Assembly (NCBI GenBank): GCA_964016885.1
Contig: OZ024766.1
Coordinates: 17,608,001 to 17,672,000, forward strand
DNA: 64,000 nt
Direction: 5' to 3'
From: Eledone cirrhosa
Taxonomy: Eukaryota
Under the pieces are notes generated by a model. The model was not told where the DNA came from. It searched no databases and saw nothing but the letters and a program-made list of their open reading frames with translations. Numbering within the stretch: position 1 is the first letter of the stretch; each line of letters starts with the position of its first letter. Shown in pieces: positions 1 through 39,499 of the stretch. The translations under genes were made by a program, and so were the position numbers.

Positions 1-1596
1 GTGTCCCCGCTTCTATCTGGAGACAGAGTCCGAAGTCTGGTTCGTCTTTGTTCATCGACTTGTTGGAGTCTTTCATACTCTTCTCTGTCGCTGATTTCCA
101 GTCTAAGGGTGTCCCCGCTTCTATCTGGAGACAGAGTCCGAAGTCTGGTTCGTCTTTGTTCATCGACTTGTTGGAGTCCTTTATACTCGTCTCTGTCGCT
201 GATTTCCAGTCTAAGGGTGTCCCCGCTTCTATCTGGAGACAGAGTCCGAAGTCTGGTTCGTCTTTGTTCATCGACTTGTTGGAGTCCTTCATACTCTTCC
301 CTGTCGCTGATTTCCTGTCTAAGGGTGTCCCCGCTTCTATTTGGAGACAGAGTCTGAAGTCTGGTTCGTCTTTGTTCATCGACTTGTTGGAGTCTTTCAT
401 ACTCTTCTCTGTCGCTGATTTCCAGTCTAAGGGTGTCCCCGCTTCTATCTGGAGACAGAGTCCGAAGTCTGGTTCGTCTTTGTTCATCGACTTGTTGGAG
501 TCCTTCATACTCTTCCCTGTCGCTGATTTCCTGTCTAAGGGTGTCCCCGCTTCTATTTGGAGACAGAGTCTGAAGTCTGGTTCGTCTTTGTTCATCGACT
601 TGTTGGAGTCTTTCATACTCTTCTCTGTCGCTGATTTCCAGTCTAAGGGTGTCCCCGCTTCTATCTGGAGACAGAGTCCGAAGTCTGGTTCGTCTTTGTT
701 CATCGACTTGTTGGAGTCCTTCATACTCTTCCCTGTCGCTGATTTCCTGTCTAAGGGTGTCCCCGCTTCTATTTGGAGACAGAGTCTGAAGTCTGGTTCG
801 TCTTTGTTCATCGACTTGTTGGAGTCCTTCATACTCTTCTCTGTCGCTGATTTCCAGTCTAAGGGTGTCCCCGCTTCTATCTGGAGACAGAGTCTGAAGT
901 CTGGTTCGTCTTTGTTCATCGACTTGTTGGAGTCCTTCATACTCTTCCCTGTCGCTGATTTCCAGTCTAAGGGTGTCCCCGCTTCTATCTGGAGACAGAG
1001 TCTGAAGTCTGGTTCGTCTTTGTTCATCGACTTGTTGGAGTCTTTCATACTCTTCTCTGTCGCTGATTTCCAGTCTAAGGGTGTCCCCGCTTCTATCTGG
1101 AGACAGAGTCTGAAGTCTGGTTCGTCTTTGTTCATCGACTTGTTGGAGTCTTTCATACTCTTCTCTGTCGCTGATTTCCAGTCTAAGGGTGTCCCCGCTT
1201 CTATCTGGAGACAGAGTCTGAAGTCTGGTTCGTCTTTGTTCATCGACTTGTTGGAGTCTTTCATACTCTTCTCTGTCGCTGATTTCCAGTCTAAGGGTGT
1301 CCCCGCTTCTATCTGGAGACAGAGTCTGAAGTCTGGTTCGTCTTTGTTCATCGACTTGTTGGAGTCTTTCATACTCTTCTCTGTCGCTGATTTCCAGTCT
1401 AAGGGTGTCCCCGCTTCTATCTGGAGACAGAGTCCGAAGTCTGGTTCGTCTTTGTTCATCGACTTGTTGGAGTCTTTCATACTCGTCTCTGTCGCTGATT
1501 TCCAGTCTAAGGGTGTCCCCGCTTCTATCTGGAGACAGAGTCCGAAGTCTGGTTCGTCTTTGTTCATCGACTTGTTGGAGTCCTTCATACTCGTCT
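1..1596. repeat. 108-bp tandem array (~15 copies, runs off window start), directly downstream of parvoviral NS1
   Basis: Unit GTGTCCCCGCTTCTATCTGGAGACAGAG...TTTCCAGTCTAAGG. On the minus strand it reads LRLEISDREEYERLQQVDEQRRTRLRTLSPDRSGDT, in the same frame as NS1 beyond its stop at 1611-1613. Confidence 0.95.
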
Positions 1597-1610
1597 AAAA
1601 TGTACACAAG

Positions 1611-2560
1611 TTAATCATCTGAAAAACTGCTATCTTCATTAATCATTTTGGAGAAGCGATGTTCATAGAAAAGTATATTCCATATGAATGGATTTAGCTT
1701 CTTTTTCACATATTTAAGGAACGGTGATGCTGTATTAAATGTGAATTCGGTGTACCTTGTAATGAAAGCCACCTCCAATAACGGTGCATTTTGATCGAAT
1801 TTGTGATTTGACGTTATAATTAACGGAGTTCTGTGGACAACCTGGTCTTGTTTGAATTTTATTGCGACCTCTCTATCAACACCTTCTGCTAATTTTTTGA
1901 AAGTCTGTAGAGTCTCAAGTGTAAAGTTTGGCTCCTCTATCAAACCTATTTCGACATTGATAAGGTTTTGGAATGGGAAGCTACTTGTTCCCTGAATCGT
2001 AGAGACATGTGTAAACACCTCAGCAATGCTTCTCGCTACCATTGATTTTCCAGTGTTTGGTAGGCCTCGAAACACTAATAGATTCCTCTTGGGTTTATTT
2101 TTGCGTCAGTAGCTCCCAAACCGTATTAACGAAAGTGGCTTCTGGCAAGGCCTGCGTTAGCATAATTGATTTGATAATTTTTAACGAAACTTCTTTTTCC
2201 ATATAGTTTTTGTCGTTGTCGAATAGTTCCCAGTTCATGGCCTCGAATTTGTCCTTAAACGACATGTTTAGTGTCTTAAGCTTCTCACACTCCAGAACTT
2301 TCTTCATGATGCTATCGTACATGGGGTGTAAGATAGTTGTCATTATTTCTGTGCAACCGATGTGACTTCATATCCTGTTCGATGCGAAATTTCTTAGATG
2401 TGAAGATGTATGTTAAATAGTTGAACAATGTCAATGGCGTTCCTGATTTTGGTTTAAATGTGGGGGGTCTTCCTGTTGTAATAACGGCTCTTTGCTAGTT
2501 GATGGTTTTGGTTGGTTGTCTGGTTGCGGTATGTGTTCTATTTCTCTTAGATTAGATCAG
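1611..2560 (-). pseudogene. NS1: Endogenous parvovirus/densovirus NS1, SF3 helicase half (copy 1), disrupted
   Basis: Walker A GLPNTGKS, Walker B IGLIEE, B' FKKLAEG..V.IKFK, motif C PLIITSN, Arg finger FITRY. ORFs 2343-2095 and 2075-1611 are split by a stop. Homology to copy 2 extends upstream (PTFKPKSGTPLTLFNYLTYIFTSKKFR). Confidence 0.9.
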
Positions 2561-4217: not shown

Positions 4218-7200
4218 TGAATAGCACTGTCTGGTGAAGGACCCCACCGTCACAAGCAGTACTCTCTGGTCAAGGACACCAGTCACAAGTAGTACTCTCT
4301 GGTGAAGGACCCCACCGTCACAAGCAGTACCCTCTGGTGAAGGACCCCACCGTCACAAGCATTACCCTCTGGTCAAGGACACCCCAGTCACAAGCAGTAC
4401 CCTCTGGTCAAAGACCCCACCGTCACAAGCAGTACTCTCTGGTCAAGGACCCCACCATCATAAGCAGTACTCTCTGGTCAAGGACACCAGTCACAAGCAG
4501 TAGTCTCTGGTCAAGGACCCCTCAGTCAAGTGCTTGACTGTCTTTGATTTTCCATTGATTTTACTTCTCTTCCCAATCCTTTGTCATTTCATCTGGAATA
4601 GTAAACCCCTTTGACAAGATCTGATGTACAACTGTACTGAATCTTCAACCTTCTCATTGAACTGAATAGCACTGTCTGGTGAAGGACCCCACCGTCACAA
4701 GCAGTACTCTCTGGTCAAGGACCCCACCATCACAAGTAGTACCCTCTGGTGAAGGACCCCACCGTCACAAGCAGTACTCTCTGGTCAAGGACACCAGTCA
4801 CAAACAGTACCCTCTGGTCAAGGACACCATAGTCACAAGCAGTACTCTCTGGTCAAGGACACCCCAGTCACAAGCAGTACCCTCTGGTCAAGGACACCAC
4901 CGTCACAAGTAGTACTCTCTGGTCAAGGACACCCGAGTCACAAGCAGTACCCTCTGGTCAAGGACACCACCGTCACAAGCAGTACCCTCTGGTCAAGGAC
5001 ACCACAGTCACAAGCAGTACCCTCTGGTCAAGGACACCAGTCACAAGCAGTACTCTCTGGTCAAGGACACCACAGTCACAAGCAGTAGTCTCTGGTCAAG
5101 GACACCACAGTCACAAGCAGTAGTCTCTGGTCAAGGACCCTCAGTCAAATGCTTGACTGTCTTTGATTTTCCATTGATTTTACTTCTCTTCCCAATCCTT
5201 TGTCATTTCATCTGGAATAGTAAACCCCTTTGACAAGATGTGATGTACAACTGTACTGAATCCTCTATTTTCTCATTGAACTGAATAGCACTGTCTGGTG
5301 AAGGACCCCACCGTCACAAGCAGTACTCTATGGTGAAGGACCCCACCGTCACAAGCAGTACTCTATGGTGAAGGACCCCACCGTCACAAGCAATACTCTA
5401 TGGTCAAGGACCCCACCGTCACAAGCAGTACTCTCTGGTCAAGGACCCCACCGTCACAAGCAGTACTCTCTGGTCAAGGACACCACCGTCACAAGCAGTA
5501 CCCTCTGGTCAAGGACACCACCGTCACAAGCAGTACTCTATGGTCAACGACACCATAGTCACAAGCAGTACTCTATGGTCAAGGACCCCACCGTCACAAG
5601 CAGTATTCTATGGTCAAGGACCCCACCGTCACAAGCAGTACTCTCTGATCAAGGACACCACAATCACAAGCAGTAGTCTCTGGTCAAGGACCCCTCAGTC
5701 AAGTGCTTGACTGTCTTTGATTTTCCATTGATTTTACTTCTCTTCCCAATCCTTTGTCATTTCATCTGGAATAGTAAATCCCTTTGACAAGATCTTATGT
5801 ACAATTGTACTGAATCCTCTATTTTCTCATTGAACTGAATAGCACTGTCTGGTGAAGGACTCCACCGTCAGAAGCAGTACTCTCTGGTCAAAAACCCCAC
5901 CGTCACAAGCAGTACTCTATGGTGAAGGACCCCACCGTCACAAGCAGTACTCTCTGGTCAAGGACCCCACCGTCACAAGCAGTACTCTATGGTCAAGGAC
6001 CCCACCATCACAAGCAGTACTCTCTGGTCAAGGGCACCAGTCAAGCAGTAGTCTCTGGTCAAGGACCCCTCAGTCACAAGCAGTAGTCTCTGGTCGAGGA
6101 CCTCCACCCCAGTCACCAGCAGTACCCTCTGGTCAAGGACACCACCAACACAAGCAGTACCCTCTGGTCAAGGACACCACCGTCACAAGCAGTACCCTCT
6201 GGTCAAGGACACCATAGTCACAAGCAGTACTCTCTGGTCAAGGACCCCCACCCCAGTCACAAGCAGTACTCTCTGGTCAAGGACACCACCGTCACAAGCA
6301 GTACTCTCTGGTCAAGGACACCACAGTCACAAGCAGTAGTCTCTGGTCAAGGACCCCTCAGTCAAGTGCTTGACTGTCTTTGATTTTCCATTGATTTTAC
6401 TTCTCTTCCCAATCCTTTGTCATTTCATCTGGAATAGTAAACCCCTTTGACAAGATCTGATGTACAACTGTACTGAATCCTCTATTTTCTCATTGAACTG
6501 AATAGCACTGTCTGGTGAAGGACCCCACCGTCACAAGCAGTACTCTATGGTCATGGACCCCACCGTCACAAGCAGTACTCTCTGGTCAAGGACACCACAG
6601 TCACAAGCAGTAGTCTCTGGTCAAGGACCCCTCAGTCAAGTGCTTGACTGTCTTTGATTTTCCATTGATTTTACTTCTCTTCCCAATCCTTTGACATTTC
6701 ATCTGGAATAGTAAACCCCTTTGACAAGATCTTATGTACAATTGTACTGAATCCTCTATTTTCTCATTGAACTGAATAGCACTGTCTGGTGAAGGACCCC
6801 ACCGTCACAAGCAGTACTCTATGGTGAAGGACCCCAGCGTCACAAGCAGTACTCTATGGTCAAGGACCCCACCAGTCACAAGCAGTACTCTCTGGTCAAG
6901 GGCACCAGTCACAAGCAGTAGTCTCTGGTCAAGGACCCCTCAGTCACAAGCAGTAGTCTCTGGTCAAGGACCTCCACCCCAGTCACCAGCAGTACTCTCT
7001 GGTCAAGGACACCACCGACACAAGCAGTACCCTCTGGTCAAGGACACCACCGACACAAGCAGTACCCTCTGGTCAAGGACACCATAGTCACAAGCAGTAC
7101 TCTCTGGTCAAGGACCCCCACCCCAGTCACAAGCAGTACTCACTGGTCAAGGACACCACCGTCACAAGCAGTACCCTCTGGTCAAGGACACCAGTCACAA

Positions 7201-21822: not shown

Positions 21823-24800
21823 TGTCCCATCTGTCCTGATTGCGGACGATGCTGGTGTAGTGCCCGGAGTCTGCACTAGCCAGTGAATGCAAGACGGAGC
21901 CGATTAGTCGGAATTTTTGGCCGTAAATGCTCTGCTTGTTCGGAGAGAAATTCATCAACTCAGAATCAATTCTGATCATCTGATTGTTTGTATATTCGAA
22001 TCTATTCAAATAAACAACCAAGTAACGCATTCATCATCATCATCATCATTTCTTTTTACGTCCACTTTTCCCTGCTTGCAAGGGTGGGACGGAAACTGAT
22101 GCTGGCATGATTTCTACAGCTGGATGCCCTTCCTAACACCAACCTCATTTACAGTGAGTGCTGGGTGCTTTTTTGCCGTGGCACCTCCACGACCACTTTG
22201 CAGTGGAATGATAGGGACCCCAGTCCCTATCATCTCATTTCTACAGCTGAGTAAACTGGAGCAATGTGAAATAAAGTGTCTTGCTCAAGGAAACAACACA
22301 TCACCCGGTCTGAGAATTGAACTCACAACCTTTCGATTGCAAGGCCAATGCTCTAACCACTAAGCCATGTTGGAAATACATGGTTAACTGTACCAAAGTG
22401 CTCGGTGTCAATGCCACACAGATCGCATCTCTTAATGAGCGAAACATCAGTTTTGAGCAAGCTTTTGAATTGCTGCCGACCATTAACAGGCTGCAACGTC
22501 AGATCAGACTTGACATCAGTTATATGTGTGCAAGTGCCACAGCCGTTGATCGATGCACAATAACATTCATCATTGTGCAATCTGGGGCAATTGTGCTCGT
22601 GTTTTCTAGTGCAGCTGAGCCAAGTATTTTCCTCAAAGGTGAATAGTTGTTTAATTTTTTTAGAGAACAACTGATAAATGTGCTTCCAAAAATCGTGCGC
22701 ACACTGTTGGGTACCATCATTAAACCTGCCACCGAGAATATTTCTCAAATTTGCGACCGATTTAGTTCCAGATGACGATATAATATCGCTAATTTCACGA
22801 ATAGCAACATCATCAGTGGACTGAATGTGTTCAACCAACAACACCAGCTGGCGTATAACTTGCATGGTGCTGTTTACAAAGCAAGCATTTCTCTCATTGA
22901 TCAGCGAAATGTACGGCTTTGCAACCGTTTTCTCAGTTCTGGCCTTTTTTGGATTCGCCAAGTTGACCATTCCACTGTCAATATTAATAGCAAATTTACT
23001 TTTTTTAGTTGCTTTTTTGGCCTGTCCAATACTGTTGGGCCTCACGTTACACAATGGAAGCGGTCCCATATTAATGGTCTCTCTCAAATAATTGTATTCT
23101 CTCCAAGCACTAGAGTCGCACATGATCAAACTCGTTGGATCAAGATCAATCAAGTAAACATTGCACAGTTTGCGGGCTCTAGACAAGGCTACATAGGCCA
23201 TACCGTCTGCAAAAACGCCAGTGCCCAAATCAACAACGACTCCATCGACACTTATTCCCTGTGATTTGTGGATGGAAATTGCATATGCAATGCACAAGGG
23301 ATATTGTTCTCTAGTGATAAAAACACTAGGAGACAATTCGTAATCGGCTTTGACACGTTTGATGGCAACAATTTGGTTTGTACTCTCAAAGAGAACGTCA
23401 ATGGAAGTAATTTTTCCAAACTCATAATTGAGTTGCTTTACAGTTCCCATTGCACCATTGCACAAGCCTTTCTCAAGATCGATGTTGCGTTTAAGCATAA
23501 CTCGAGCATTAACGCCAACTTTAAGAACAGTTTCAAGGCCAGCAGTATCAGAAGTCTTTTTAGTGGTCAGCTTTTTTCTTATTGTTTTCTTTTGACATTT
23601 GGTTTGCCTCATATTCGAATCAATAGCCATAAGCTCAACGGTATTAATGCCAAGTTTATTGAGCATTGCAGCGTTAAACTTTTCTACTGACTCGTTTAGA
23701 GGCATGATACAGACGATACTCAAATTAGAAGTCTGTATCAGCTCACACATTTTGTAAGCAACCTGATCAATGGAAGCTTTGCCGTTGAGATCAATTCTAT
23801 GCTTATTTAGAATTTCAATATCTGAATCAAGTGGTGAACCCAGCCTTATTCGGCCGAGCATGTCAACATAATTATCCAAGTCTTCTTTCTGACGCATGTT
23901 GACTGTCAACTCGTCGTACTTGAAGTACCTCCACAAATGGTGGCTGCTGACGCCTATGCATGATCTTTGTGCATCTTGGTGAGTAACTTTGTTAAACACC
24001 GGCTTTTCTCTAACAGGCGGTAATTGAAGCAAATCTCCAAAAACAACAATGTTCATTCGCCCGAAAGGAGAAATGCCTTGGGCAAAGTCACAAAACAATT
24101 GGCACAATCTCAAGTGAATGAATGCCAACTGCAAATGACTGACCATGCTAATCTCATCGATTATGATCAGTCGGACATATTGAAGCCCCATCCTCAGCAT
24201 TTTCAAAAAGTCCTTTGGTAGATCATCGTACACGGGAGTTTTACCGTGCTGCACTTTGAGCTTTAGCATTCGATGAACAGTCATGCCGTTGAGTTGGAAA
24301 GCAGCCATTCCTGTGGGTGCCGATATCACTACGCTCGGGCCATTGTCATTTGGATACATGTACTGAATTTTATCAGCCAGTACATTTATCAAAAAACTCT
24401 TGCCCGTGCCACCAACACCTGAAACAAATTTCAAGACTTGTGGACAATCATCGCAACTACATCTCGGATAAGGTTTGCTGTTGTCCCAATGTTTGTCTTG
24501 TTTGTCAATACCGGCAACGATATCGTCATAAATTTTTCTTTGCACTTCATTCAGTTTATTTTCTTTATGCCTCAGTGCATCCTCATTGACATCTCTCATG
24601 CATGGCAAATCGACATTAGCATCATCAACTGCCAACGCCTCCATGTGATCACCGCAAGAATGGTCATCATTATCATGAGACTGAGGTTCGTTTTGAATAT
24701 GTTTGGCTTGTTCCAGCGCATTCTCCAAACGTTTGCGCACATTCTGGAACCTGACCATTTCAGATAAATGGTTTGCACACTGTTCAAAAGACTCTTTATA

Positions 24801-27800
24801 AGTCTCACAACCTCCCAGCAAGTCTTTTTCCTCGTCTCGCCAAGGTTTAAAGAGTATAAGCAGGTTGTGGTGATAGCGCTCACAGGTATCTGCAGTCAAT
24901 CTAATGTTTGGCGACTTCACAATCCGCTCTTTCACAGATTTGAAATAGCCAAGATTATTTCTCAACCTGAAGTCGTCATCAAAATTGCTGTTACCAATTG
25001 GATTCACATGTTCGTATTTACTCGCAAGTTCATACAAACACATGTGCTCCATCGAATCAGGCCTGTTTGGATACCAATTTTCGACCATATTCTCGTAATA
25101 AAGATCGGTAGAATACGGTTTCAATTTATCCAGTTCATACTGAGGCCTGAACCTGTGGGATCGGTAACTAGGCAAATCGGCCCCAATCCAAATGAGGCTT
25201 TCAGAGCATCCATAAAAATGGTGGCCAAGCAATTTGTCTGCAGCCTCATAGGCACCTGTATCACGCTTGCCCATCAGCTTAAGTCCGACACTCTTGTATC
25301 TGGAGTAAATGGACTTGGACTTGTCAATCTCAGCCCAAATACCTTCAGTTTCAGTCTTTTCGGACTTTGTCTGATAACTAGTAACATATCGGTTTAGAAT
25401 CATGCTATCTTCACCGATGTATTGGATATCGACATTAGCTTTCCAGACATACAGAACAACAGGATTGTAGTCATTGATGCACTCTTCCCCTTGTCGTCTG
25501 TCAAGCTTGTACAACTTTTTGACAGCTCTACCTTTGTGTTGAGATTTTATACACTCGTTGACGCTAAGCAAATTGAAATTCCCGATAGGACGAGGAAATC
25601 CAAACCTGCATCGAGTGTAAAAACGACCACTCGAAAATATTTGCCTTTTGCAGGATCCACTACACACATGTCGTTGAAAACGCAACACCAAGTCTGACAA
25701 AACGGGGCTTTCTACATTGGACGGCATGCGACATGTGATCATGGACTGTATAAACGTCTGAATAGCATACTTGTCGTCTCTGTCCATAATAGGGCCATCT
25801 TTAATCCATAATTTCATATGAACATGCGGAGCACCTCTCATTTGGTATTCCAACCTCCAAAAAAAGTGCTCGACAATACCAAACGGAGAATTGGTATGTT
25901 TAACAACTTCTTTCATAAAGGTGGTGAACCGATGGTGAAAATGTTCGCTAACAGCCACCACGTCATCCGCGCACAACTCATTGGTGCGTTTTCTAGAAAT
26001 GTCTGGTATGTCAGCATTCAACTTTTCCAGGAACTCTCTCAGATCAGGCCAAAAGTACTCTGCACAAGACAAAGTTAAGAACAAGTGGGCCGGGCCAAAT
26101 TTCTCGTCCATAGCCATCAAGTCTGAACATTTTCTAGACCAAAACTGCTTGGAACCACGGACATTGGCCATCATCATATTTAAATTGCCCTCTAGGTGCC
26201 TGTCATTTTCATGAAGCCGCCTTCTAAACTCGCTTATAGTCATGCGGCTGTTTTTGGTGGTCTTCATGATGGCATATATACCAGAATCAATGCCTCTCTT
26301 GTCGGCTTTATCAAGACAAAACATGAGATATTGTATATCTCGCCGAAATCTAGAGTCGCTATGATTCAGTCTGTTTCTTATGAACATGTATGGCTTTACA
26401 GCGCCAAACGGTCTATTGTCCACGAAAATGCCAAACTGACCAGTTGGATAAAGACAAGGAAAGCACAACAACTCAAGTTTTTTATCATTGTCTGCAATGA
26501 AATCGCCTTCCACTCTTTTCATTTTGTACAAAGCCAAGTCAGTGTCTGCAGGGAGACACGGATTCATGTCTTTAACAGTGTGATGCTCATAGGTAATGCC
26601 AGCATTCGATTTAAGTAAAAGATTATCGAATTTGGCATTATTAACTCCCGAGCACTCGACAATGTTTTCATTTTCCGTATCGGCGTAGCGATTGATCTTA
26701 ACATCGGCATACATTACATTGTTTGCTGCAAGCCAATCAAGTGCCTTCAATACTTTACTCATGTCTACCATTGAACGCCAGATAATTTGTTTCCGCGAAG
26801 GCAAGCTATCAACGACTATTTTAAGCATGTCGTCTTGAAGCGCAGGTAACGTATCCATGGTGCGGTTAATAGTTCCGTCCATAGGCAAAGGCAAGTGAAT
26901 TGCAATTCCTTTAATAGCGGAAATGCATGCTGAAATATTGCCTTTGAATGAGTATGGCACCAGTTTTATTACATTGACGAAACATTTGGCCCGTTGTACA
27001 AGTATTCGCTCATATGTATTAAGATCAGCAAGTTCTTTGGGAACGGCAGCAACGCCCAAGCCATTTATTGAGGCCATTGAAGGCACCCCACTGTTTCGCA
27101 AATGTGTAGTGCATGTTGTGCAGACTGTGCAAGGCAAAGAGTAGTTGGCAGTTATTGCATCCTTTGCAACGGCCGTTTTAAAATATCTAGAGTTCCAATT
27201 ATCCCAAACTTTTAGTTCCTTGCTATATTTGCGCAGTTTGCAGATATGACAATGTTGGATTTTATAGTTGGTAATTTCAGATTGAAATCTTTGAACTTGA
27301 TTACCATATTTATGAATGACATCTGCATCAGTGTGTTCGACATCATTGAAACCAGTGCACATATTATTGAATTTAACTGCAATAGCACGCTCAATGTTGG
27401 CAACGTCTGTCAAATTCTCAAAGTTGGTCCAATCGCCATTGAAAACAGCTTCATTGTACTTGTTGAGCCAAATACATAAGGACCGAACTTTATAAATTTT
27501 CCTCAGCAATGTGCGCAACTTTGGCGAGTGAACTGCTATGGATTTTAAAAAGCCAAATTCACTGGTGCAGCCAGTTTGACCGATGCAGTGCTGATCATTA
27601 TCATGAGTAACATTGCAAAACTCATATTTCTCGATCAACTGCCTTATTTCAGCAACTGTCATATCGGGATTGAGTTTTGGAAGTTTATCATCAATTCTTT
27701 GGCACAAAGTTAGACGAGCAGCTGAGTCATTTGGACATGTATCTAATATGGAAGACCCGCAAGGTCTAACCAAACATTTAGACACATCATTATCATCATT

Positions 27801-28742
27801 CTGCTCGTCAGCATTAGCCATGTCATTCACAATGTTGTCTGTCTCCTTATTATTGATAACGACTATTCGGACTTTCTCAACGGACTGATTTTTAAACTCA
27901 TCCATTTTCATGTACTTTGCAGTGCTCTTGTCAAAATTAGGAAGCTCATTGGTGGAACTGTGATAATGTTGATTTCCCCAATAATGCAACAAACCGTTAG
28001 CATTGACCTTTTCCATCAATGTATGCACAGCTTTAACATTTATTTTTAATTGAGCACACACAAAATTTCGCATCCCAACAGATCTGGAGAACACACTCAG
28101 CACGTGACTATATGCGTCGTTGCGAAGATTGGTATCTGTTATTGTCTTTTTATATGACTTAACAAATTGGGACATCAAGATCTGATGCTGAATCCGGAAG
28201 TCAACCATTTTATTTAGTTTCTTCATTTGATACAAAGACCGCTTATGAAGAAACTTTTTTTTATAATATGTTTTCTCATAAGACTGTATATTATCTTTAT
28301 GGTGAATTTTATACATAGCCTTTGTTTGTAATACTTTGTCTTGATTTGCAGATCTGTACTTGGTCTGCTCTTTAGCCAACTCGGTACGTTTAGAAGCTCT
28401 ACGCTCGGCTTGCTTTTGAGATATAATAGCTGAATTTGCAGATCTATACTTGGCCTGCTTGTTTGCCAACTCATACCGTTTTGAACATCTATACTTGGCC
28501 TGTTTTTGTATCAACTTCTCCCGATTCCGCATCCGGTAAGCTGCTTTCACATCCAATTTAATATGCCCATCTAGATTATTAGCACAGGAATGTGAACAAG
28601 CTTGTGGGACCGCATCATTGTAAGTATATGAACTGCCTGCAACATCAAGACCCAATTCACAAGTGCAGCGTTGCTCATTCACATCGGCAGTGGGGACACC
28701 AAAATCAGTGACAGGTCTCGATTCACTCGCGAGATACATCAC
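21731..28742 (-). pseudogene. Helitron Rep/helicase (HUH-Y2 Rep + PIF1 SF1B helicase) with C-terminal USP/peptidase-C19-like domain; interrupted by one SINE (restored length ~2223 aa)
   Basis: Rep motifs FLTLSCAE, EYQMRGAPHVHMKLW, YVTSYQTK. Helicase motifs GVGGTGKS, APTGMAA, IIDEISM, GDLLQLPPV, SIHKSQG, YVALSR. USP Cys box NERNACFVNSTMQ, QQCAHDF and His box VLH...SGHYTS...W..IND. Deleting 22031-22370 gives in-frame HVFP|MRYLVVYLNRF. Confidence 0.92.
22031..22370 (-). mobile_element. tRNA-derived SINE with RTE-like 3' tail and (GAT)n end
   Basis: A-box TGGCTTAGTGG, B-box GAGTTCAATTC, CCTTGAGCAAGACAC. Tail CCCACCCTTGCAAGCAGGG is shared with the RTE fragment at 31543. Confidence 0.9.
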
Positions 28743-28802
28743 AGCTACACTATATATTTAAACATATATACAGTGATACCTCGCTACTTGGCGGTTCATA
28801 CG

Positions 28803-31542: not shown

Positions 31543-32411
31543 CATCATCATAATCATCAGGATTTTACGTCCGCTCTTCCCTGCTTGCAAGGGTGGGGCG
31601 GGTCCTATTCAGCACGGCATCTCTCCACTTGTCCCGGTCCTTCGTCATCTCCACCGTGAGCTTCAGCGATCTGAGGTCTGTTCTCACCACCTCCGCCCAT
31701 GTTTTTCGTGGTCTACCTCTACCACGTCTTCCTTCTACTGGGATTTCCTGGCACTTCTTCACCCATCGGTCTTCCTCCATGCGCATCACATGTCCATACC
31801 ACCTCAGTCTCCTCTCCCACACAACCCAGTTTCTCTCTCAACACATCACATGTCCATACCATCTCAGTCTTCTCTCCCACACACCACAACTTATCCCTCT
31901 TATACACAGTTTCTCTCTCAACACATCACATGTCCATACCATCTCAGTCTTCTCTCTCACACAACCCAACTTATCCCTCTTATACCCAGTTTCTCTCTCA
32001 ACACATCACATGTCCATACCATCTCAGTCTTCTCTCCCACACACCACAACTTATCCCTCTTATACCCAGTTTCTCTCTCAACACATCACATGTCCATACC
32101 ATCTCAGTCTTCTTTCCCACACACCACAACTTATCCCTCTTATACCCAGTTTCTCTCTCAACACATCACATGTCCATACCACCCCAGTCTTCTCTCCCAC
32201 ACACCACAACTTATCCCTCTTATACCCAGTTTCTCTCTCAACACATCACATGTCCATACCACCTCAGTCTTCTCTCCCACACACTACAACTTATCCCTCT
32301 TATACACAGTTTCTCTCTCAACACATCACATGTCCATACCACCTCAGTCTTCTCTCCCACACACCACAACTTATCCCTCTTATACCCAGTTTCTCTCTCA
32401 ACACATCACAT
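31543..32411 (-). mobile_element. RTE-clade LINE 3' end with internal 80-bp tandem expansion (~7 copies)
   Basis: RRLRWYGHVMRMEEDRWVK...GRRGRGRPRKTW, tail and (GAT)n; it truncates NS1 copy 2. Confidence 0.85.
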
Positions 32412-33667
32412 GATGTTTTGGTCGAACTTGTTGTTAGACGTAATAATAAGTAATGTTCTGTGTACGACCTGATCTTGCTTAAATTTTATGGTGACTTCAG
32501 TGTTGACACCTTCGGCTAACTTTTTAAATGTTTGAAGAGTTTCGAGCGTAAAGTTGGGTTCCTAGATCAGTCCAATTTCTACATTTACTAAGTTCTGAAA
32601 CGGAAAACTACTGGTTCCTTGAATGGTTGACACATGCGTAAACATATCTGCTATGCTACGCGCTACCATAGATTTTCCTGTGTTCGGTAAACTTCTGAAT
32701 ACAAGAAGATTACGTTTCGGTTTTCGTTGTGTTAACAGTTCCCATACCATGCATACGAATGTGCTTTCAAAGATGTCCTGTGTCTTCAGTATAGATTTAA
32801 ATATTTTCAAAGAAACTTCTTTATCCATATACTGTTTTTCACTTTTGAACAGATCCCAATTCATTGCTTCAAACTTGTCTTTAAATGACATGTTTAATGT
32901 TTTTAACTTTTCACACTCAAGGAGCTTCTTCATCACACTATCGTACATTGGGTGAGATATTGCTCTCATGAAATTATCGTTGTTGGTTCGGTGTAACCAG
33001 TGAGACTTTATGACCTGCTCCGCCCTGAACTTTTTAGATGTGAAAATATAAGTCAAATAATTGAACGACGTAAGTGTTGTCCCAGACTTGCATTTGAAAG
33101 TTGGTTCCTCCTGACGTACGTTGTTGTTTTTGCTTGTAGAAGGTTTCAGTGATATTCCAGGTTTAGCTCTGTGTTCAAGTTGACACCAGTTCGAGAAATC
33201 TTCATTGATGTCATCTATATCCAGTATAAGTACGTAACGTAACGCAGTGGCTGACAAAAGTAGTAAGCCATACTGCTTGGGAACTTTATTCTTTGGCATT
33301 CTGGAATGAATCTTTCTAACTTGTTTGCCTTCTTATAAAGACTTTGTATGTATTTTAGCCGTTGATTTTCGCCCGGGCTTTGTGCACTGTGCCAAATAAT
33401 ATGGAAGTGGTTAAATGTGTTCTACTCCTTCTTAGCACATAACGAATTGTTCTTAGGGTGATATATTACAGTCGCTCCTTGAACCTGGACAAATTCTTTC
33501 ATTTTATAGTTCGCATTTATTTGAAAAGAGTCTTTTCTTGTTTTGTCTTCTTGGTATATTGTAACGTTGAGTTCATAATCTTTGATTGGTATTCTGCCTT
33601 CATCCCCAAAAAAATCGTCGCTCTCTATCCAAGGGTAAATGCACATATAGAGCTTTTGCCCAGTATT
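32412..33667 (-). pseudogene. NS1: Endogenous parvovirus NS1 (copy 2): HUH nuclease + SF3 helicase, with stops and a frameshift
   Basis: HFHIIW at 33409-33392 and MAYYF at ~33271-33257, both in the frame of ORF 33730-33422 past its stop. Then SLPNTGKS, IGLI*EPNF, FKKLAEG and LIITSN. Confidence 0.9.
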
Positions 33668-33921
33668 CTGAAATGGTAAATGGTTACATTGTAATATTAC
33701 TTTAACGATGTGCTTGTCTGGTTTTGCCAACTCTCGTTATTTCATAGTTACGTAAGCCTTGTGGCCATTTGCATAAGTTAGTTTTAGCCGAATTCATTAT
33801 AGTTGCTTTAGCTGTACCCCATGCCATCCAACCCATCGTTTGTGGACTTCCTGATATATACTCGAAATCTACTTCTGAATGGTATGTAATTGTTATCATA
33901 AATGAAATTTTAGAAGGAATG

Positions 33922-34473
33922 TGTAGTAACCTACATTCCGCGGGCTCACATACATTCTCTGTGCGTGATTTGGCTCAGTTCAGCCAATCGGCGCCAGTAG
34001 AAGAGGATGTATCCCTACGCGCCCTGAGGAAGAAATTCCCCGCGAAGATTTGAAGAATCTCTCTCTTGTACCAGAAACTTCGAGCCAGCAACACGCATAA
34101 TGTAACAGTGAGATATTGCACCCCTAGCCTCGCCGGCTTAACGGCGCAATGGCACATTCCCTTTGGTAACCTCTTTTTATCTGTAACTTCAACCATATAA
34201 ATAAACAGATATTTCATCTCTAATTGCTGCTGTTGAAGTCGTTGTTATGTTACTCGTGTCTCAAGAACATCTTTAATCCATGCTGCTGTAATTGGCGACC
34301 TGACGAAAGGAATATTGTAAATAGATGGTAAATAGATCGAGGGACCTTCCCTCACGTCTATGTCAACAAGATAATCCAACGAGGATACTATCACTTACCA
34401 CACTGGCAACTAACGACTTTCAATCATCTACCCTGCTAAAGTGGCGACTACTCTATAACCAATAACTGCTAAA
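33922..34473 (+). mobile_element. Probable solo LTR (552 bp)
   Basis: TGTAG...CTAAA (degenerate CTACA) ends, 4-bp TSD AATG (33918-21 / 34474-77), internal AATAAA. Removal restores DSQNIPSKISFM. Confidence 0.7.
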
Positions 34474-35016
34474 AATGTTTTGAGAGTCTAATATTGGTAC
34501 TGAGTCTAAAGTAGCTATCGGTGGAGGATTAGATGGATTTACAGGAAATTGTGTTAAATGCAATCTACCCATATTTTCTTCTTCCTCTGTTTTATCTACT
34601 GCTAAATCTTTGCTCCATGTACCGTCTTTAGTTGGTGCCCATTGTGATTTTTTAGCTCCTGAATATGTATTTATCTCGCATGGTAGACCGTTAGTTAATT
34701 TAATTGTTGGTGGTTCGAATGTAGTGTTGAATGGATAGAAACTCATCATTGAAAACCAACTAGGTGTTCTGTTAACCCATGTGTAAGCTGCTGTATCTCC
34801 TGCGTATAAGAATTGGAAGTCCCTTGTATTTAAGTATGATAGTATTCCTTCTGCTGGTATTTCTTGTTCGTTAGCTGTTGCTGCCTTTATATCTTGCCAT
34901 AGCCACCAATCTTTTCTAATTAATCTATTGCTATCTATATTTTGTAATTTTCCCTCGTCTCTCGTTAATGGTATGTTATGTGTCCAGTTATTATTTAAAT
35001 GTGATATATGCCAAGT

Positions 35017-35236
35017 GAAGGCGTGTGGCTGAGTGGTTAGAGAATTGGATTCGCAATCGTAAGGTTGTGAGTTCAATTCCTGGACAAGGCGACGCGTTAT
35101 GTCCTTGAGCAAGACACTTTATTTCACGTTGCTCCTTCTACCTGGAGTTGCGACCGATAGATAGTATTAGCAATTGGAAAGACCAACGGAAACATTGTTC
35201 CCTCGGTCCGATTTGACGAAAGTCGATCGTTCCTGA
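35017..35236 (+). mobile_element. tRNA-derived SINE inserted in the capsid gene
   Basis: A-box TGGCTGAGTGG, B-box GAGTTCAATTCC; 11-bp TSD ATATGCCAAGT (35006-16 / 35237-47). Confidence 0.9.
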
Positions 35237-35269
35237 ATATGCCAAGTTTGATTTGGAAACAAAGCGTAT

Positions 35270-36612
35270 TTATTATCTACGTAATGTATCACCCATGGTC
35301 TAGTGTTTGTTGTAGTGTTTTGTAATGTCCCCTAATTTGTCTGTTAATGGTATTATCTACGTAATGTACCCCCCATGGTCTAGTGTTGTTGTAATGTTTT
35401 GTAATGTCCCCTAATTTGTCTGTTAATGGTATTATCTATGTAATGTACCCCCCATGGTCTAGTGTTTGTTGTAGTGTTTTGTAATGTCCCCTAATTCGTC
35501 TGTTAATGGTATTATCTATGTAATGTACCCCCCATGGTCTAGTGTTTGTTGTAGTGTTTTGTAATGTCCCCTAATTTGTCTGTTAATGATATTATCTATG
35601 TAATGTACCCCCCATGGTCTAGTGTTTGTTGTAGTGTTTTGTAATGTCCCCTAATTCGTCTGTTAATGGTATTATCTATGTAATGTACCCCCCATGGTCT
35701 AGTGTTTGTTGTAGTGTTTTGTAATGTCCCCTAATTTGTCTGTTAATGGTATTATCTATGTAATGTACCCCCCATGGTCTAGTGTATGTTGTAATGTTTT
35801 GTAATGTCCCCTAATTTGTCTGTTAATGGTATTATCTATGTAATGTACCCCCCATGGTCTAGTGTTGTTGTAATGTTTTATAATGTCCCCTAATTTGTCT
35901 GTTAATGGTATTATCTATGTAATGTACCCCCCATGGTCTAGTGTATGTTGTAATGTCCCCTAATTTGTCTGTTAATGGTATTATCTATGTAATGTACCCC
36001 CCATGGTCTAGTGTTGTTGTAATGTTTTATAATGTCCCCTAATTTGTCTGTTAATGGTATTATCTATGTAATGTACTCCCCATGGTCTAGTGTATGTTGT
36101 AATGTTTTATAATGTCCCCTAATTTGTCTGTTAATGGTATTATCTATGTAATGTACCCCCCATGGTCTAGTGTTTGTTGTAATGTTTTGTAATGTCCCCT
36201 AATTCGTCTGTTAATGGTATTATCTATGTAATGTACCCCCCATGGTCTAGTGTATGTTGTAATGTCCCCTAATTTGTCTGTTAATGGTATTATCTATGTA
36301 ATGTACCCCCCATGGTCTAGTGTTGTTGTAATGTTTTATAATGTCCCCTAATTTGTCTGTTAATGGTATTATCTATGTAATGTACTCCCCATGGTCTAGT
36401 GTATGTTGTAATGTTTTATAATGTCCCCTAATTTGTCTGTTAATGGTATTATCTATGTAATGTACCCCCCATGGTCTAGTGTTTGTTGTAATGTTTTGTA
36501 ATGTCCCCTAATTCGTCTGTTAATGGTATTATCTATGTAATGTACCCCCCATGGTCTAGTGTTTGTTGTAATGTTTTATAATGTCCCCTAATTCGTCTGT
36601 TAATGGTATTAT
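35270..36612. repeat. ~80-bp tandem array (~17 copies) amplified from capsid coding sequence
   Basis: The unit covers IIPLTDELG..QNTTTNTRPW..HY.DN and is continuous with VP sequence on both sides. Confidence 0.9.
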
Positions 36613-36810
36613 GTTTGATATTTTGTATCCGCATGCTTTAACTCTGAAGTTACTGCAAGGTGTTAAGTAAGTTTCTAATTCTGCTATTGTCATACTCGCT
36701 TTTAACTCTGTGTAAGGAATTAAAGCTGCTCTATGTGCTCTTCGTAATTGTATATATTCTGCATCGTGTTTCTTGTAGTAGGCTTTATCTATTGGATTTT
36801 CAGTACAATT

Positions 36811-37821
36811 TCATCATCATCATCATCATCAATTGCATCATCACCGTTTTACGTCCGTTCTTCCACGCTAGCATGGGTTAGACGGGTTGTCCTGTTGTGG
36901 GCAGTGTCTGGTCGGCTGACCATGCCTTGCTCATACAGGAACTGATCTGGCTTGATTTCTACAGCTGGATGCCCTTCCTAACACCAACCTCATTTACAGT
37001 GAGTGCTGGCTGCTTTTTCGTGGCGCCTACATGTCCACTTTACAGTGTGGGCCGGGTGCTTTTTCGTGGCGCCTACACGTCCACTTTACAGTGTGGCTGG
37101 GTGCTTTTCCATGGCGCCTACACGTCCACTTTACAGTGTGGGCTGGGTGCTTTTCCATGGCGCCTACACGTCCACTTTACAGTGTGGGCTGGGTGCTTTT
37201 CCATGGCGCCTACACGTCCACTTTACAGTGTGGGCTGGGTGCTTTTCCGTGGCGCCTACACGTCCACTTTACAGTGTGGGCTGGGCCCTTTACCATGGCG
37301 CCTACACGTCCACTTTACAGTGTGGGCTGGGCCCTTTACCGTGGCGCCTACACGTCCACTTTACAGTGTGGGCTGGGTGCTTTTCCGTGGCGCCTACACG
37401 TCCACTTTACAGTGTGGGCTGGGTGCTTTTCCATGGCGCCTACACGTCCACTTTACAGTGTGGGCTGGGTGCTTTTTTGCCGTGGCACCTCCACGACCAC
37501 CTTACGGTGGGGGGTGTGGGGGCATATTGTCTATATGCTTCAGCTTGTACCCATGGGAGGTCGGGTACTCTGTATTACTGCGCGACGCCAGAGGTCACGG
37601 TCGTGTGTCATCGCCTTTGAGAGGTGTAATTGGGTAAGGTCGGCTTTTATCACCTCATCCCAGGTCATCTTGGGTCTCCCCACTCCGCGGTTTCCATCGA
37701 CTTCTAGTGCTCTGCACCTTTTTATGCAGCTGTCATCCTTCATACGCATCACATGTCCATACCAGCGCAACCGCCTCTCCTGCACACAGCATTTGATTCC
37801 TCTTATGCTCAGTCTCTCTCT
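36811..37821 (-). mobile_element. RTE LINE 3' fragment plus SINE-like tail with 49-bp minisatellite, inserted in VP
   Basis: ERRLRWYGHVMRMKDD...GNRGVGRPKMTW (37824-37540), CCACTTTACAGTGTGGGCTGGG repeats and a (GAT)n tail. Confidence 0.85.
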
Positions 37822-38084
37822 CAATTCATTTACGTAATGTATAAATATTCTAGAGAATTTTTTCGATACTATTGGACAGCGTGGAAAGATGGCTGTGTCT
37901 AACTCACTTTTGGCAACTCTTTATCCTCAGTGATGTCATCCAGGCGGAAGTGGCGTCACCAGGACCGGTCTGTGGCGCAGTGGTAAGGGACATCTTCTGT
38001 AGACAGTGTTTCACATTTTATCTTTTCACTCAACTTATTTTCTATAATTCTGGTCACGGTCGCCCCCCCCCCCCCCCCCCCCCA

Positions 38085-38320
38085 GCCACAAGCAGTACCC
38101 TCTGGTCAAGGACCCCCACCCCACAGTCACAAGCAGTACCCTCTGGTCAAGGACCCCAGTCACAAGCAGTACCCTCTGGTCAAGGACCCCACAGTCACAA
38201 GCAGTCCCCTCTGGCCAAGGACCCCACAGTCACAAGCAGTACCCTCTGGTCAAGGACCCCACAGTCACAAGCAGTACTCTCTGGTCAAGGTCCCCCCACC
38301 CCACCCCACCCAGTCACATA
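38085..38320. repeat. Short array of the same ~35-bp unit as 4218-11070
   Basis: GTCACAAGCAGTACCCTCTGGTCAAGGACCCC, about 6 copies. Confidence 0.9.
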
Positions 38321-38389
38321 CTGTGGCCCCAAGTGTTTCAGAACGTCTGCTTTACTGACTGACCTGAAGTACTTTCATGATCTATCCTT

Positions 38390-38810
38390 CAGATTCATTC
38401 CTCTGACCTCTACTACTTGATCCCTAATTGAGCCTCACCCTCTTCTTGGTCTTGATCCCAGATTCATTCCTTTGACCTCGTCAATAAGGTTGACCAGTTA
38501 CTACTTGATCCCTAATTGAGCCTCACCCTCTTCTTGGTCTTGATCCCAGATTCATTCCTCTGACCTCGTCAATAAGGTTGACCAGTTACTACTTGATCCC
38601 TAATTGAGCCTCACCCTCTTCTTGGTCTTGATCCCAGATTCATTCCTCTGACCTCGTCAATAAGGTTGATCAGTTACTACTTGATCCCTAATTGAGCCTC
38701 ACCCTCTTCTTGGTCTTGATCCCAGATTTATTCCTTTGACCTCGTCAATAAGGTTGATCAGTTATTACTTGATCCCTAATTGAGCCTCACTCTCTTCTTG
38801 GTCTTGATCC
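38390..38810. repeat. 88-bp tandem repeat (~5 copies)
   Basis: TACTACTTGATCCCTAATTGAGCC recurs at 38411, 38499 and onward. Confidence 0.9.
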
Positions 38811-39153
38811 AGAGGTTGAGGAAATATTTCACAGTAATTCTACGATAGATTTATATATACAGTGTTACACGAGTTCTGTTTAAAACGTTTTAGTCTTGAA
38901 ATGATGATAAATAGAAGAGATGTATTCAAGATTGAAAAATAAATTTATCCCAATGTCATCTGATATTCTGAAATAAGAAAGAAGTAGAGCGAGGGTTCTG
39001 AGGTTGTATGAATGTAACAAAACGAGACATGGTTTGTGTATATAATATTTAATTAACGGTAGATGGAATACTTGACATGTCAAAGATAGATGTTAGAATG
39101 AAACAAAGTTAGTAGTTACCGTTTTGATTGCCAGGCAAACGCGGCTGGCAGAG

Positions 39154-39291
39154 GGCGCCTGGCTAAGGCCAGGCGCCTGTTGGCCAAATTAATGGCAGAG
39201 CCAAATGAGAGGCTCTTCGACCTGGTGCCGAAAAGGCAAAGAGAGAGGGGAAGCTTAAAGTTGTTAGTTTTATAGGGCTCTGACCGGAAGT
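39154..39291 (-). promoter_or_regulatory. Putative viral promoter: TATAAAA with upstream ETS-like site and downstream GC hairpin
   Basis: Minus-strand TATAAAA at 39274-39268, CCGGAAGT at 39284-39291, hairpin GGCGCCTGGC-TAAG-GCCAGGCGCC at 39154-39177; oriented toward VP and NS1. Confidence 0.35.
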
Positions 39292-39499
39292 CGCAGAAAG
39301 GGTTCCACCTCCCGTCTAGATCCCAATCAAAACAAGGGAGACAACCGCTACAGAAGCAGTATGAGATAATAGAGAATACTTAAGAAGCAGAGATAGATTT
39401 AATGGTGGAAATTTTATATTTCTATATTGGTGAAATGTAGATATATATAACTTTGATATCAGAGGTAAATTATTTTTTGAAAGTGGTAAGTTTTCTTGA

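Follow-up and report, generated by a model that had tools for sequence, protein, structure and literature searches.

A degraded endogenous parvovirus in Eledone cirrhosa and its relatives point to a capsid-first lineage with a capsid gene likely nested in an NS1 intron

The 64,000-nucleotide stretch of Eledone cirrhosa contig OZ024766.1 considered here (the window; positions 17,608,001 to 17,672,000) contains, on its minus strand, a degraded parvovirus insert of ~2.4 kb that is split by host repeats and lacks the start of the capsid gene (VP) and both genome ends. Read in the viral sense, the first surviving VP piece (37828..37876; ~aa 150-164 of a 522-aa paralogue), defined by paralogue alignment, is followed by a host RTE/SINE-type insertion within VP (36812..37827), which carries a 46-bp tandem array (36,993-37,476) and is probably of RTE type, judging by its C-terminal peptide. 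Comparison with paralogues places further VP pieces at 36610..36811 (~aa 164-230) and 35237..35331 (~aa 238-270), together with a tandem expansion (35271..36612) in which an 80-bp stretch of the capsid DNA itself is present in 17 copies. Next come a host SINE, flanked by an 11-bp target-site duplication (35017..35236), a stop-free VP piece (34478..35016; ~aa 271-450; dN/dS 0.12-0.31 versus paralogues), a host solo LTR with the target-site duplication AATG (33922..34473), whose family copies are 95-97% identical and in several instances paired ~2 kb apart, and finally the VP C-terminus (33702..33917), including the stop codon TAA (33,704-33,702). All four interruptions had been recognized in the original prediction, which also proposed a capsid ORF of ~400 aa ending at 33702; that end was correctly placed, while the surviving VP amounts to ~375-390 of 522 codons.

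Still on the minus strand, the VP-NS spacer (33668..33701) comprises a pyrimidine tract and CAG, a conserved site predicted to serve as the acceptor of an NS1 intron (AG 33,669-33,668). The NS1 main exon (32415..33667) encodes the HUH (HFHIIW) and Tyr (YFCQP) motifs and Walker A/B/C of an SF3 helicase, in line with the HUH, Tyr and SF3 features originally described, and matches Parvo_NS1 in Pfam (E 1.8e-6). This copy contains stops at 33,424-33,422 and 32,564-32,562, changes frame near 33,240 and is cut off on its 3' side at 32,415 (~aa 410 of 549) by an RTE-type insertion of host origin (31543..32414), which itself carries an 80-bp array. NS1 had been thought to start ~35 nt past VP. The NS1 frame does adjoin VP, but ~35 nt is the distance to the splice acceptor, the first in-frame ATG lying at 33,646, 55 nt past the VP stop. 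Neither a hairpin nor AATAAA was found in the spacer, as had been stated; the lack of a promoter or polyA signal there is accounted for by the spacer being a splice acceptor, with NS1 likely beginning in a short exon that precedes VP.

The upstream DNA of four close paralogues aligns to the window no further than 37,876. Absent 5' of this position are the PLA2 N-terminus (~135-150 codons), the promoter, the NS1 first exon and the left hairpin. The range originally given to the virus, 32412..39300, runs into a high-copy host LTR (38985..39355; 2,342 candidate copies), which lies outside the viral insert and was rejected on this account as a viral promoter end. Of the whole reconstructable genome once envisaged, remains of VP and NS1 are present, while the left parts, the 3' part of NS1 and both ends are missing. 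The window copy is a truncated, dead fragment, one of many copies in the genome.

It is these other copies, along with contigs from sequencing runs, that make up the evidence for gene order. VP followed by NS on the same strand was found in 15 of 20 NS-anchored paralogous stretches, four of the 15 being ~99% identical to each other; of the remaining five, four contain NS only and one is a fused fragment in the opposite order. Three further stretches present VP then NS, of which two share just 29-48% identity with the reference, and two contigs from a second organism (organism B; 3,670 nt and 3,570 nt) are collinear across the VP-NS junction. The same order is seen in a second lineage, the NS1 of which is 25.6% identical over 414 aa, namely at one locus (L058) and in 7 of 16 stretches anchored on VP only, the other nine containing VP alone. 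At every mapped VP-NS junction, both genes lie on one strand. An NS fragment precedes a VP fragment at L018, L071 and L075, and at L032 NS aa 3-490 is fused to VP aa 349-520; no copy with NS followed by a whole VP was encountered among the 50 stretches mapped. As judged from these sequences, the VP-before-NS1 order is real and characterizes the virus lineage as a whole. The undescribed mollusc lineage originally proposed is supported by paralogues, a second organism and a second lineage, as is the recurrence of its gene order at other loci. VP is under purifying selection (dN/dS 0.11-0.31 in 10 of 10 pairs). The inserts range from ~99% identical to ~30% diverged.

In the paralogues, NS1 matches Parvo_NS1 with E values of 5e-18 to 7e-16 and again contains Walker A/B/C; three of three NS1 paralogues carry HFHII (aa 83) and YFCQ (aa 130), and H-F-H-x-I and the Tyr are invariant in both lineages. 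The top PDB sequence matches of NS1 are AAV Rep and parvovirus NS1. Paralogues encode a PLA2-VP of 522-538 codons, in which the PLA2 domain (PF08398; E 1e-13 to 3e-13), with a YCGP loop and an HD/HN motif, is the region missing from the window copy. The capsid core yielded no Pfam match; in a profile comparison it matched the capsid of Penaeus monodon metallodensovirus (PmMDV; E 1.6e-8, profile positions 214-268). The structure search that had been proposed was performed with a natural open paralogue that is 79-92% identical to the main VP pieces of the window. The model is a predicted beta-barrel (pLDDT 70.7, 153 residues being below 50), and every named match among the top Foldseek matches listed is a parvovirus capsid, with best E values of 5e-12 in PDB and 3e-21 in BFVD and low TM-scores of 0.25-0.46 by query length. 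VP is thus predicted to fold as a parvovirus-type single jelly roll.

In paralogues, hairpins precede VP and follow NS1, bounding a viral unit of ~3.9 kb. Three left and two right terminal hairpins and four that follow the polyA signal each fold better than 200 of 200 shuffled sequences; the left and right hairpins differ except for shared GGGA repeats, and their loops occur in two reverse-complementary orientations. Dimer junctions pivot on these hairpins, head-to-head ~400 nt 5' of VP (L021) and tail-to-tail ~216 nt 3' of NS (L023). Since the hairpins sit outside the VP-NS pair and such junctions exist, the genome is likely linear rather than circular.

Examination of the DNA preceding VP in paralogues revealed a TATA box ~155 nt before the VP ATG and an 18-codon ORF that runs up to a GTRAGT donor, the donor being located 7-10 nt ahead of that ATG. 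Among 11 VP upstream regions, the ORF is present in all, the donor GT in nine and the TATA in nine. On the other side of VP, 15 of 16 loci, that of the window among them, have a pyrimidine tract and CAG; in paralogues, the CAG acceptor lies ~35 nt past the VP stop, the NS1 frame continues in phase 0, and AATAAA and then the right hairpin follow. In agreement, a joint (5172-6791; GT..AG, coding strand, 1,618 nt) that skips all of VP was seen in runs X4 (organism A) and X18 (organism B), in one contig per run with 29 letters on its short side, neither run being recorded as RNA, as is true of all 23 runs. Its 3' end is the site homologous to the window acceptor. The joint had a depth of 0 in X1, X5, X8, X14 and X20, three of which (X1, X5 and X14) are guessed to be RNA or unlabelled, giving two positive runs of seven. 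Processed DNA copies were not seen, the leader being missing from eight NS-only or 5'-truncated loci; a genome search with the left end of one strain returned nine matches, all at loci already mapped with VP, and one 74-nt match. Given the acceptor in the spacer, the 18-codon exon and donor before VP, and the VP-skipping joint, the capsid gene likely lies inside an NS1 intron. As the first exon precedes VP, the VP-first order also holds at the transcript level. In the second lineage, no GTRAGT donor was found in the 260 nt before the PLA2 segment in eight of eight regions, and so the nested arrangement is shown for the first lineage only.

This last result, together with an NS ATG of its own in the VP-first second lineage, would suit a linear virus in which NS1 comes mainly from a promoter inside VP, the splice being a minor product or one of host context, as would the finding of the joint in two of seven runs and of unspliced contigs that also span the junction. 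Such a scheme is nonetheless unlikely, as the copies keep the 18-codon exon, the donor and the acceptor although their synonymous sites differ by 54-64% in VP and approach saturation in NS, the joint has identical coordinates in two organisms, and a Leu codon takes the place of the first NS-frame Met in six of the loci examined. More improbable still is a circular or circularly permuted genome, as originally suggested, in which VP-then-NS would only reflect where the circle was opened. Head-to-tail or circular forms would indeed produce what is seen at L028, where VP is preceded by a right-end hairpin in the same sense, and at L020 and L025, which are bounded by direct repeats (370 and 131 nt, respectively). 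These repeats were rejected as signs of a circle, since they lie outside the hairpin-derived ends, in a cluster of mixed viral fragments. Against a circle, two different hairpins bound the unit and serve as pivots of fold-back dimers, with loops in both orientations, the copies with NS before a whole VP that a circle would also yield are absent from the 50 mapped stretches, and the first exon lies before VP. Nor does the layout of circular Rep-encoding ssDNA viruses, with one stem-loop origin, apply to a unit with two distinct end hairpins, fold-back dimers and a parvovirus-type NS1.

That the sequences now belong to an NS1-driven host mobile element, no longer a virus, might be read from the ~99% identical copies, which sit on four contigs with different junctions, and from the matching spliced contig in a host run. 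Yet the PLA2 capsid is retained under purifying selection, the copies form many divergent lineages with ragged rather than precise ends, and related VP and NS are present on free-standing contigs of ~4 kb (4,017-nt ENA contigs), making this a most improbable reading. The least probable is that an ordinary NS-VP parvovirus was rearranged upon integration or in a concatemer and then copied through the host genome. Many inserts are indeed rearranged, deleted or fused (L021, L022, L024, L032 and L035), but this proposal is largely refuted by a spacer of the same 48-55 nt, containing no terminus, that connects VP to NS in copies that are 60-75% identical in protein and diverged under purifying selection, in the second organism and in the second lineage.

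The window contains, with considerable confidence, an endogenous fragment of a VP-first parvovirus lineage that likely had a linear, hairpin-ended genome and made NS1 by splicing out VP. A single left promoter would yield one pre-mRNA, which when spliced would encode NS1 (18 + ~550 aa) and when unspliced would encode VP1, putatively through leaky scanning or re-initiation, given that the short ORF then stops after 28-29 codons; VP2 may be translated from an ATG further downstream. Control of splicing, and not NS1 activating a downstream capsid promoter, would then act as the early/late switch. Replication is presumed to be by rolling hairpin, with replication intermediates having entered the germ line many times.

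Like Parvovirinae and Iteradensovirus, which are monosense with a PLA2-VP1, the lineage described here has an HUH and SF3 NS1, a PLA2 at the VP1 N-terminus, hairpin ends and ~4 kb encoded on one strand, and a jelly-roll capsid is predicted to be shared as well. Monosense parvoviruses differ in gene order, since VP here lies on the left and the NS1 body on the right, joined across VP to a short first exon. For all parvoviruses, PMC11357303 assigns the left half of the genome to NS and the right half to VP. PMC12298888 gives this order too and describes splicing and the use of a single left promoter in bocaparvo-, erythroparvo- and amdoparvoviruses. To the left of VP, the present lineage has only 18 NS1 codons. 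PMC13426907 bases the classification of Parvoviridae on the SF3 domain; because membership rests on that domain, VP-first is a new layout and not grounds for exclusion. Indeed, the SF3 NS1, the HUH motifs, the predicted jelly-roll VP and the end hairpins of the ~3.9 kb unit, the latter from paralogues, are features of this family, in which the hairpin-ended unit measures 4-6 kb, and the PLA2 of the VP1 unique region is one of Parvovirinae and Densovirinae. Family members package linear ssDNA in T=1 particles; the sequences covered here are integrated copies and contigs. Ambisense densoviruses, with NS and VP on opposite strands, are unlike the single-strand arrangement found at each junction.

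Among solved structures, the capsid of PmMDV (Metallovirinae), a virus of a marine invertebrate with a 4.4 kb genome, is the best sequence-level match of the VP core. NS lies on the left in PmMDV. Its genome has ITRs and is without PLA2, according to PMC11357303, whereas here PLA2 is present and the two hairpins are distinct. The nearest parallel to a PLA2 sequence ahead of NS1 is Swazi bat-associated megaparvovirus, in which, according to PMC13426907, NS1 is preceded on its own strand by a PLA2-containing ORF with a splice donor and has the capsid core on its 3' side, in a genome of ~6.4 kb; in the lineage considered here, by contrast, the entire PLA2-capsid gene precedes the NS1 body.

An endogenous NS fragment from Octopus bimaculoides (KOF81493 / A0A0L8GWZ8; 246 aa) was listed by Francois et al. 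in 2016 (PMC5013282). Its helicase motifs are those of this lineage, and it is among the copies in the NS1 tree, which comprises copies and unclassified relatives only, if it equals P0009, of the same length and organism; squid and cuttlefish ESTs in the same paper resemble the second lineage by eye. The parts of that paper covered hold fragments only, with no gene order, termini or splicing. In the open-access literature searched, neither a monosense parvovirus with VP first nor an octopus parvovirus genome came up. Scans of IMG/VR and JGI metagenomes returned no relative, a weak result because short patterns were used. Unannotated GenBank genomes may carry the VP-first order.

Subfamilies and genera are delimited by monophyly on NS1/SF3, with 35-40% NS1 identity as the threshold. 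The evidence leans, if modestly, towards a cephalopod VP-first parvovirus clade, unclassified and probably of subfamily rank, with at least two lineages 26% identical in NS1, in one of which the whole PLA2-capsid gene would be an NS1 intron and splicing alone would set the switch between replication and capsid production, and which would still be circulating and entering octopus germ lines. Early and late expression are usually linked to the order with NS on the left and VP on the right. This rule, treated in reviews as universal, is broken by a capsid-first layout in two deep lineages, and a capsid gene nested in an NS1 intron would offer a simple alternative timing mechanism. The further occurrence of PLA2 is relevant to the number of times that this domain was gained, and the many inserts provide a dated fossil record as well as a host for a marine parvovirus branch so far known only from fragments.

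The original prediction of a capsid gene (VP) preceding NS1 on one strand was borne out in the window, where the main copy is a genuine endogenous parvovirus fragment. Six-frame reading of the minus strand, together with mapping with open paralogous proteins, placed NS1 at 33,667 to 32,415, and the same protein mapping placed VP in five minus-strand pieces (37,876-37,828; 36,811-36,610; 35,331-35,237; 35,016-34,478; and 33,917-33,702). Located between these pieces were all of the interruptions that had been proposed, namely, an RTE/SINE insert, an 80-bp array (17 copies of a unit that is itself capsid DNA), a SINE flanked by a duplication of 11 bp, and an LTR whose target site duplication is AATG. 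NS1, which matched Parvo_NS1 (E 1.8e-6), is broken by two stops and a single frame change and stops short at about residue 410 of 549. The notion of a reconstructable genome at 32,412-39,300 held for the presence of VP and NS1 but not for the first 135-150 capsid codons or either genome end, all of which are absent, with viral DNA totaling about 2.4 kb; the upper part of that range, rejected as viral, is host LTR. The only named relatives were proteins of Octopus vulgaris and O. bimaculoides, which makes an octopus the likely host.

Other elements were noted in the window. Host LTRs at 38,985-39,355 and 33,922-34,473 belong to two young families (copies 95-98% identical; more than 2,300 candidates each), in which paired LTRs are separated by a mere 1.75 and 2.1 kb or so, indicating short non-autonomous elements. 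A second NS1 fragment of the main lineage (1-2,464, minus strand, residues ~181-514) is 71% identical to the main copy at the DNA level, and its C-terminal DNA has given rise to a 108-bp tandem array at 1-1,596; with the 80-bp array, two satellites of the window are thus of viral origin. An apparently young Helitron presents an open Rep/helicase frame of 2,134 codons at 22,353-28,757 on the minus strand (Helitron_like_N, E 1.8e-28; PIF1, E 3.4e-24).

Sequence comparison and structural modeling both identify the gene upstream of NS1 as a predicted capsid gene. Open VP paralogues of 522-538 residues begin with a PLA2 domain (PF08398, E 1e-13), and their profile matched the capsid of Penaeus monodon metallodensovirus (E 1.6e-8), as well as the PLA2 region of other VP1 chains. 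When an AlphaFold2 model of a paralogue, built from a 60-sequence alignment (pLDDT 70.7, pTM 0.56, 153 residues under 50), was compared with the PDB and BFVD, parvovirus capsids were retrieved in each case (best matches, Syngnathus chapparvovirus, E 5e-12, and an unclassified bird-swab member of the Parvoviridae, E 3e-21, respectively), at 8-18% identity and TM scores of 0.25-0.46 by query length, in line with what had been anticipated for VP. Language-model features likewise suggest an affinity with parvovirus VP and NS1 clusters.

A genome search returned 44 NS and 31 VP matches, these being matches rather than copy numbers. VP precedes NS on the same strand in 15 of 20 ten-kb stretches around NS matches, four of the 15 being about 99% identical yet with differing junctions; four stretches hold NS only, and in one (L032) NS residues 3-490 are joined directly to VP residues 349-520. 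Fourteen more stretches added three VP-then-NS cases, two of them just 29-48% identical to the reference. NS fragments lie ahead of VP fragments in three stretches (L018, L071 and L075), none of which contains NS followed by a whole VP. In organism B, two contigs span the junction in VP-then-NS order, one 3,670 nt long and about 89% identical, the other 3,570 nt long. The junction is not unique among homologs otherwise arranged NS-then-VP; it recurs at other loci, and having the capsid gene first characterizes the lineage as a whole. Identity among open paralogues is 60-67% for NS1 and 60-75% for VP; as every one of 10 pairs gave a VP dN/dS of 0.11-0.31 and eight of the 10 showed saturation at NS synonymous sites, the paralogues diverged as working genes.

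Four contigs (L021-L024) carry inserts about 99% identical, each with its own fold-back rearrangement and two starting inside TA microsatellites, which we read as a recent burst of entry or re-insertion. At L019 (3,045-6,020), an extended open frame (1,178 residues, one stop) whose surroundings resemble a retroelement continues in frame into NS1 sequence, a possible capture or chance fusion.

The ends of the genome were considered across copies. An imperfect hairpin lies about 400 nt 5' of the VP ATG, its stem sequence varying between lineages with pairing kept. Past the NS stop, AATAAA (five of five checked) is followed by a short hairpin set between a run of A and a run of T, and then by a second hairpin that shares the GGGA repeats of the left one. 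The short hairpin, GC-rich and seen just 3' of the NS stop in six stretches (L019, L020, L025, L026, L028 and L035), also varies in sequence while keeping its pairing and position between polyA signal and right hairpin. All nine folded stretches fold better than 200 of 200 shuffles, although two lie on fold-back junctions and owe their score partly to construction. A circular or permuted genome, as had been suggested, would fit L028, where a right-end copy lies 5' of VP, the arrangement expected of a head-to-tail form. By contrast, the dimer at L021 is joined head to head about the left hairpin and that at L023 tail to tail about the right one, which, together with the two outer hairpins, argues against circularity; the viral genome is likely linear. 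Relative to the inner arm, five loci show the left loop in one orientation and three show it in the opposite one, these being flip/flop isomers or collapsed dimers. Both are expected from rolling-hairpin replication.

The spacer between VP and NS1 had been described as lacking a promoter or polyA signal. Indeed, no conserved polyA signal was found 3' of VP across the copies; instead, 15 of 16 loci, the window among them, have a pyrimidine tract and CAG past the VP stop that match the phase of the NS frame (predicted acceptor AG at 33,669-33,668 in the window). A role of the spacer as splice acceptor would explain why it lacks a promoter. Alignment of public sequencing runs to a paralogue revealed a joint across 1,618 skipped nucleotides, whose ends read GT..AG on the coding strand and which leads from a point 10 nt upstream of the VP ATG to one 15 nt short of the first NS Met. 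Its depth was 18.1 in X4 (organism A) and 8.0 in X18 (organism B), each represented by one contig with 29 letters on the short side, from runs not on record as RNA, and 0 in X1, X5, X8, X14 and X20; the alignment of one X5 contig starts right at the donor and leaves 53 letters loose. Independent backing comes from conservation of the splice signals. In all 11 upstream regions, an 18-codon ORF (M-N/S-Y-E/D-D/E-L-K...) closes at the donor on a codon boundary; nine of the 11 retain an intact donor GT, and nine have a TATA box at -149 to -162. Unspliced, the ORF would run to a stop 10-11 codons past the donor. The capsid gene thus likely sits within an NS1 intron.

What was seen directly comprises the gene layout and its motifs, the hairpins and dimer junctions, the conservation of the splice signals and the joint in two contig sets. 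We consider the full mechanism probable, in which a linear VP-first genome makes NS1 by splicing out its capsid gene. A single promoter would drive transcription, with spliced RNA yielding NS1 and unspliced RNA yielding VP1 and VP2 via leaky scanning; splicing would set the early/late balance, and replication intermediates would have integrated repeatedly. The joint-bearing X4 contig stops where one insert is truncated, a weak hint that transcripts in X4 come from host inserts rather than free virus.

A different parvovirus insert adjoins one main-lineage copy (NS1 25.6% identical over 414 residues, VP about 19%). At this locus (L058, 2,461-5,907), PLA2-VP precedes NS1 on one strand, as it does in seven of 16 VP-anchored stretches of this second lineage, the other nine holding VP only; one copy has a hairpin 5' of VP. 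The GTRAGT donor is absent from all eight regions examined and NS keeps its own ATG; the nested-intron scheme is accordingly proposed for the main lineage. The second lineage, also seen at L072, L076, L077 and L080, has 25 or more VP matches across the genome, and ESTs from squid and cuttlefish listed in the PMC5013282 supplement resemble its NS. At about 8.97-9.09 Mb of G000:C12 (L020, L025, L058, L059, L075 and L078), inserts of both lineages lie densely on one strand amid pieces of transposons and have short stretches of viral sequence in duplicate among them, an arrangement that looks like a piRNA-cluster-type trap.

Related VP and NS genes, 35-40% identical, lie on 4,017-nt ENA contigs. 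The available text of PMC5013282 lists an endogenous O. bimaculoides NS fragment with the motifs of the main lineage and gives no gene order, and that of PMC11945456 and PMC9616810 had no further bearing on VP-first order. A bipartite exception to the parvovirus layout has been described (PMC10267136). In a lineage outlined in PMC13426907, a PLA2 ORF lies 5' of NS1 with the capsid 3', whereas in the main-lineage copies the whole PLA2-VP precedes the NS1 body. No report of a VP-first monosense parvovirus was found in the literature searched. In all parvoviruses, NS is said to be encoded to the left and VP to the right (PMC11357303; likewise PMC12298888 and PMC9896142), and the capsid-first order departs from the layout so stated.
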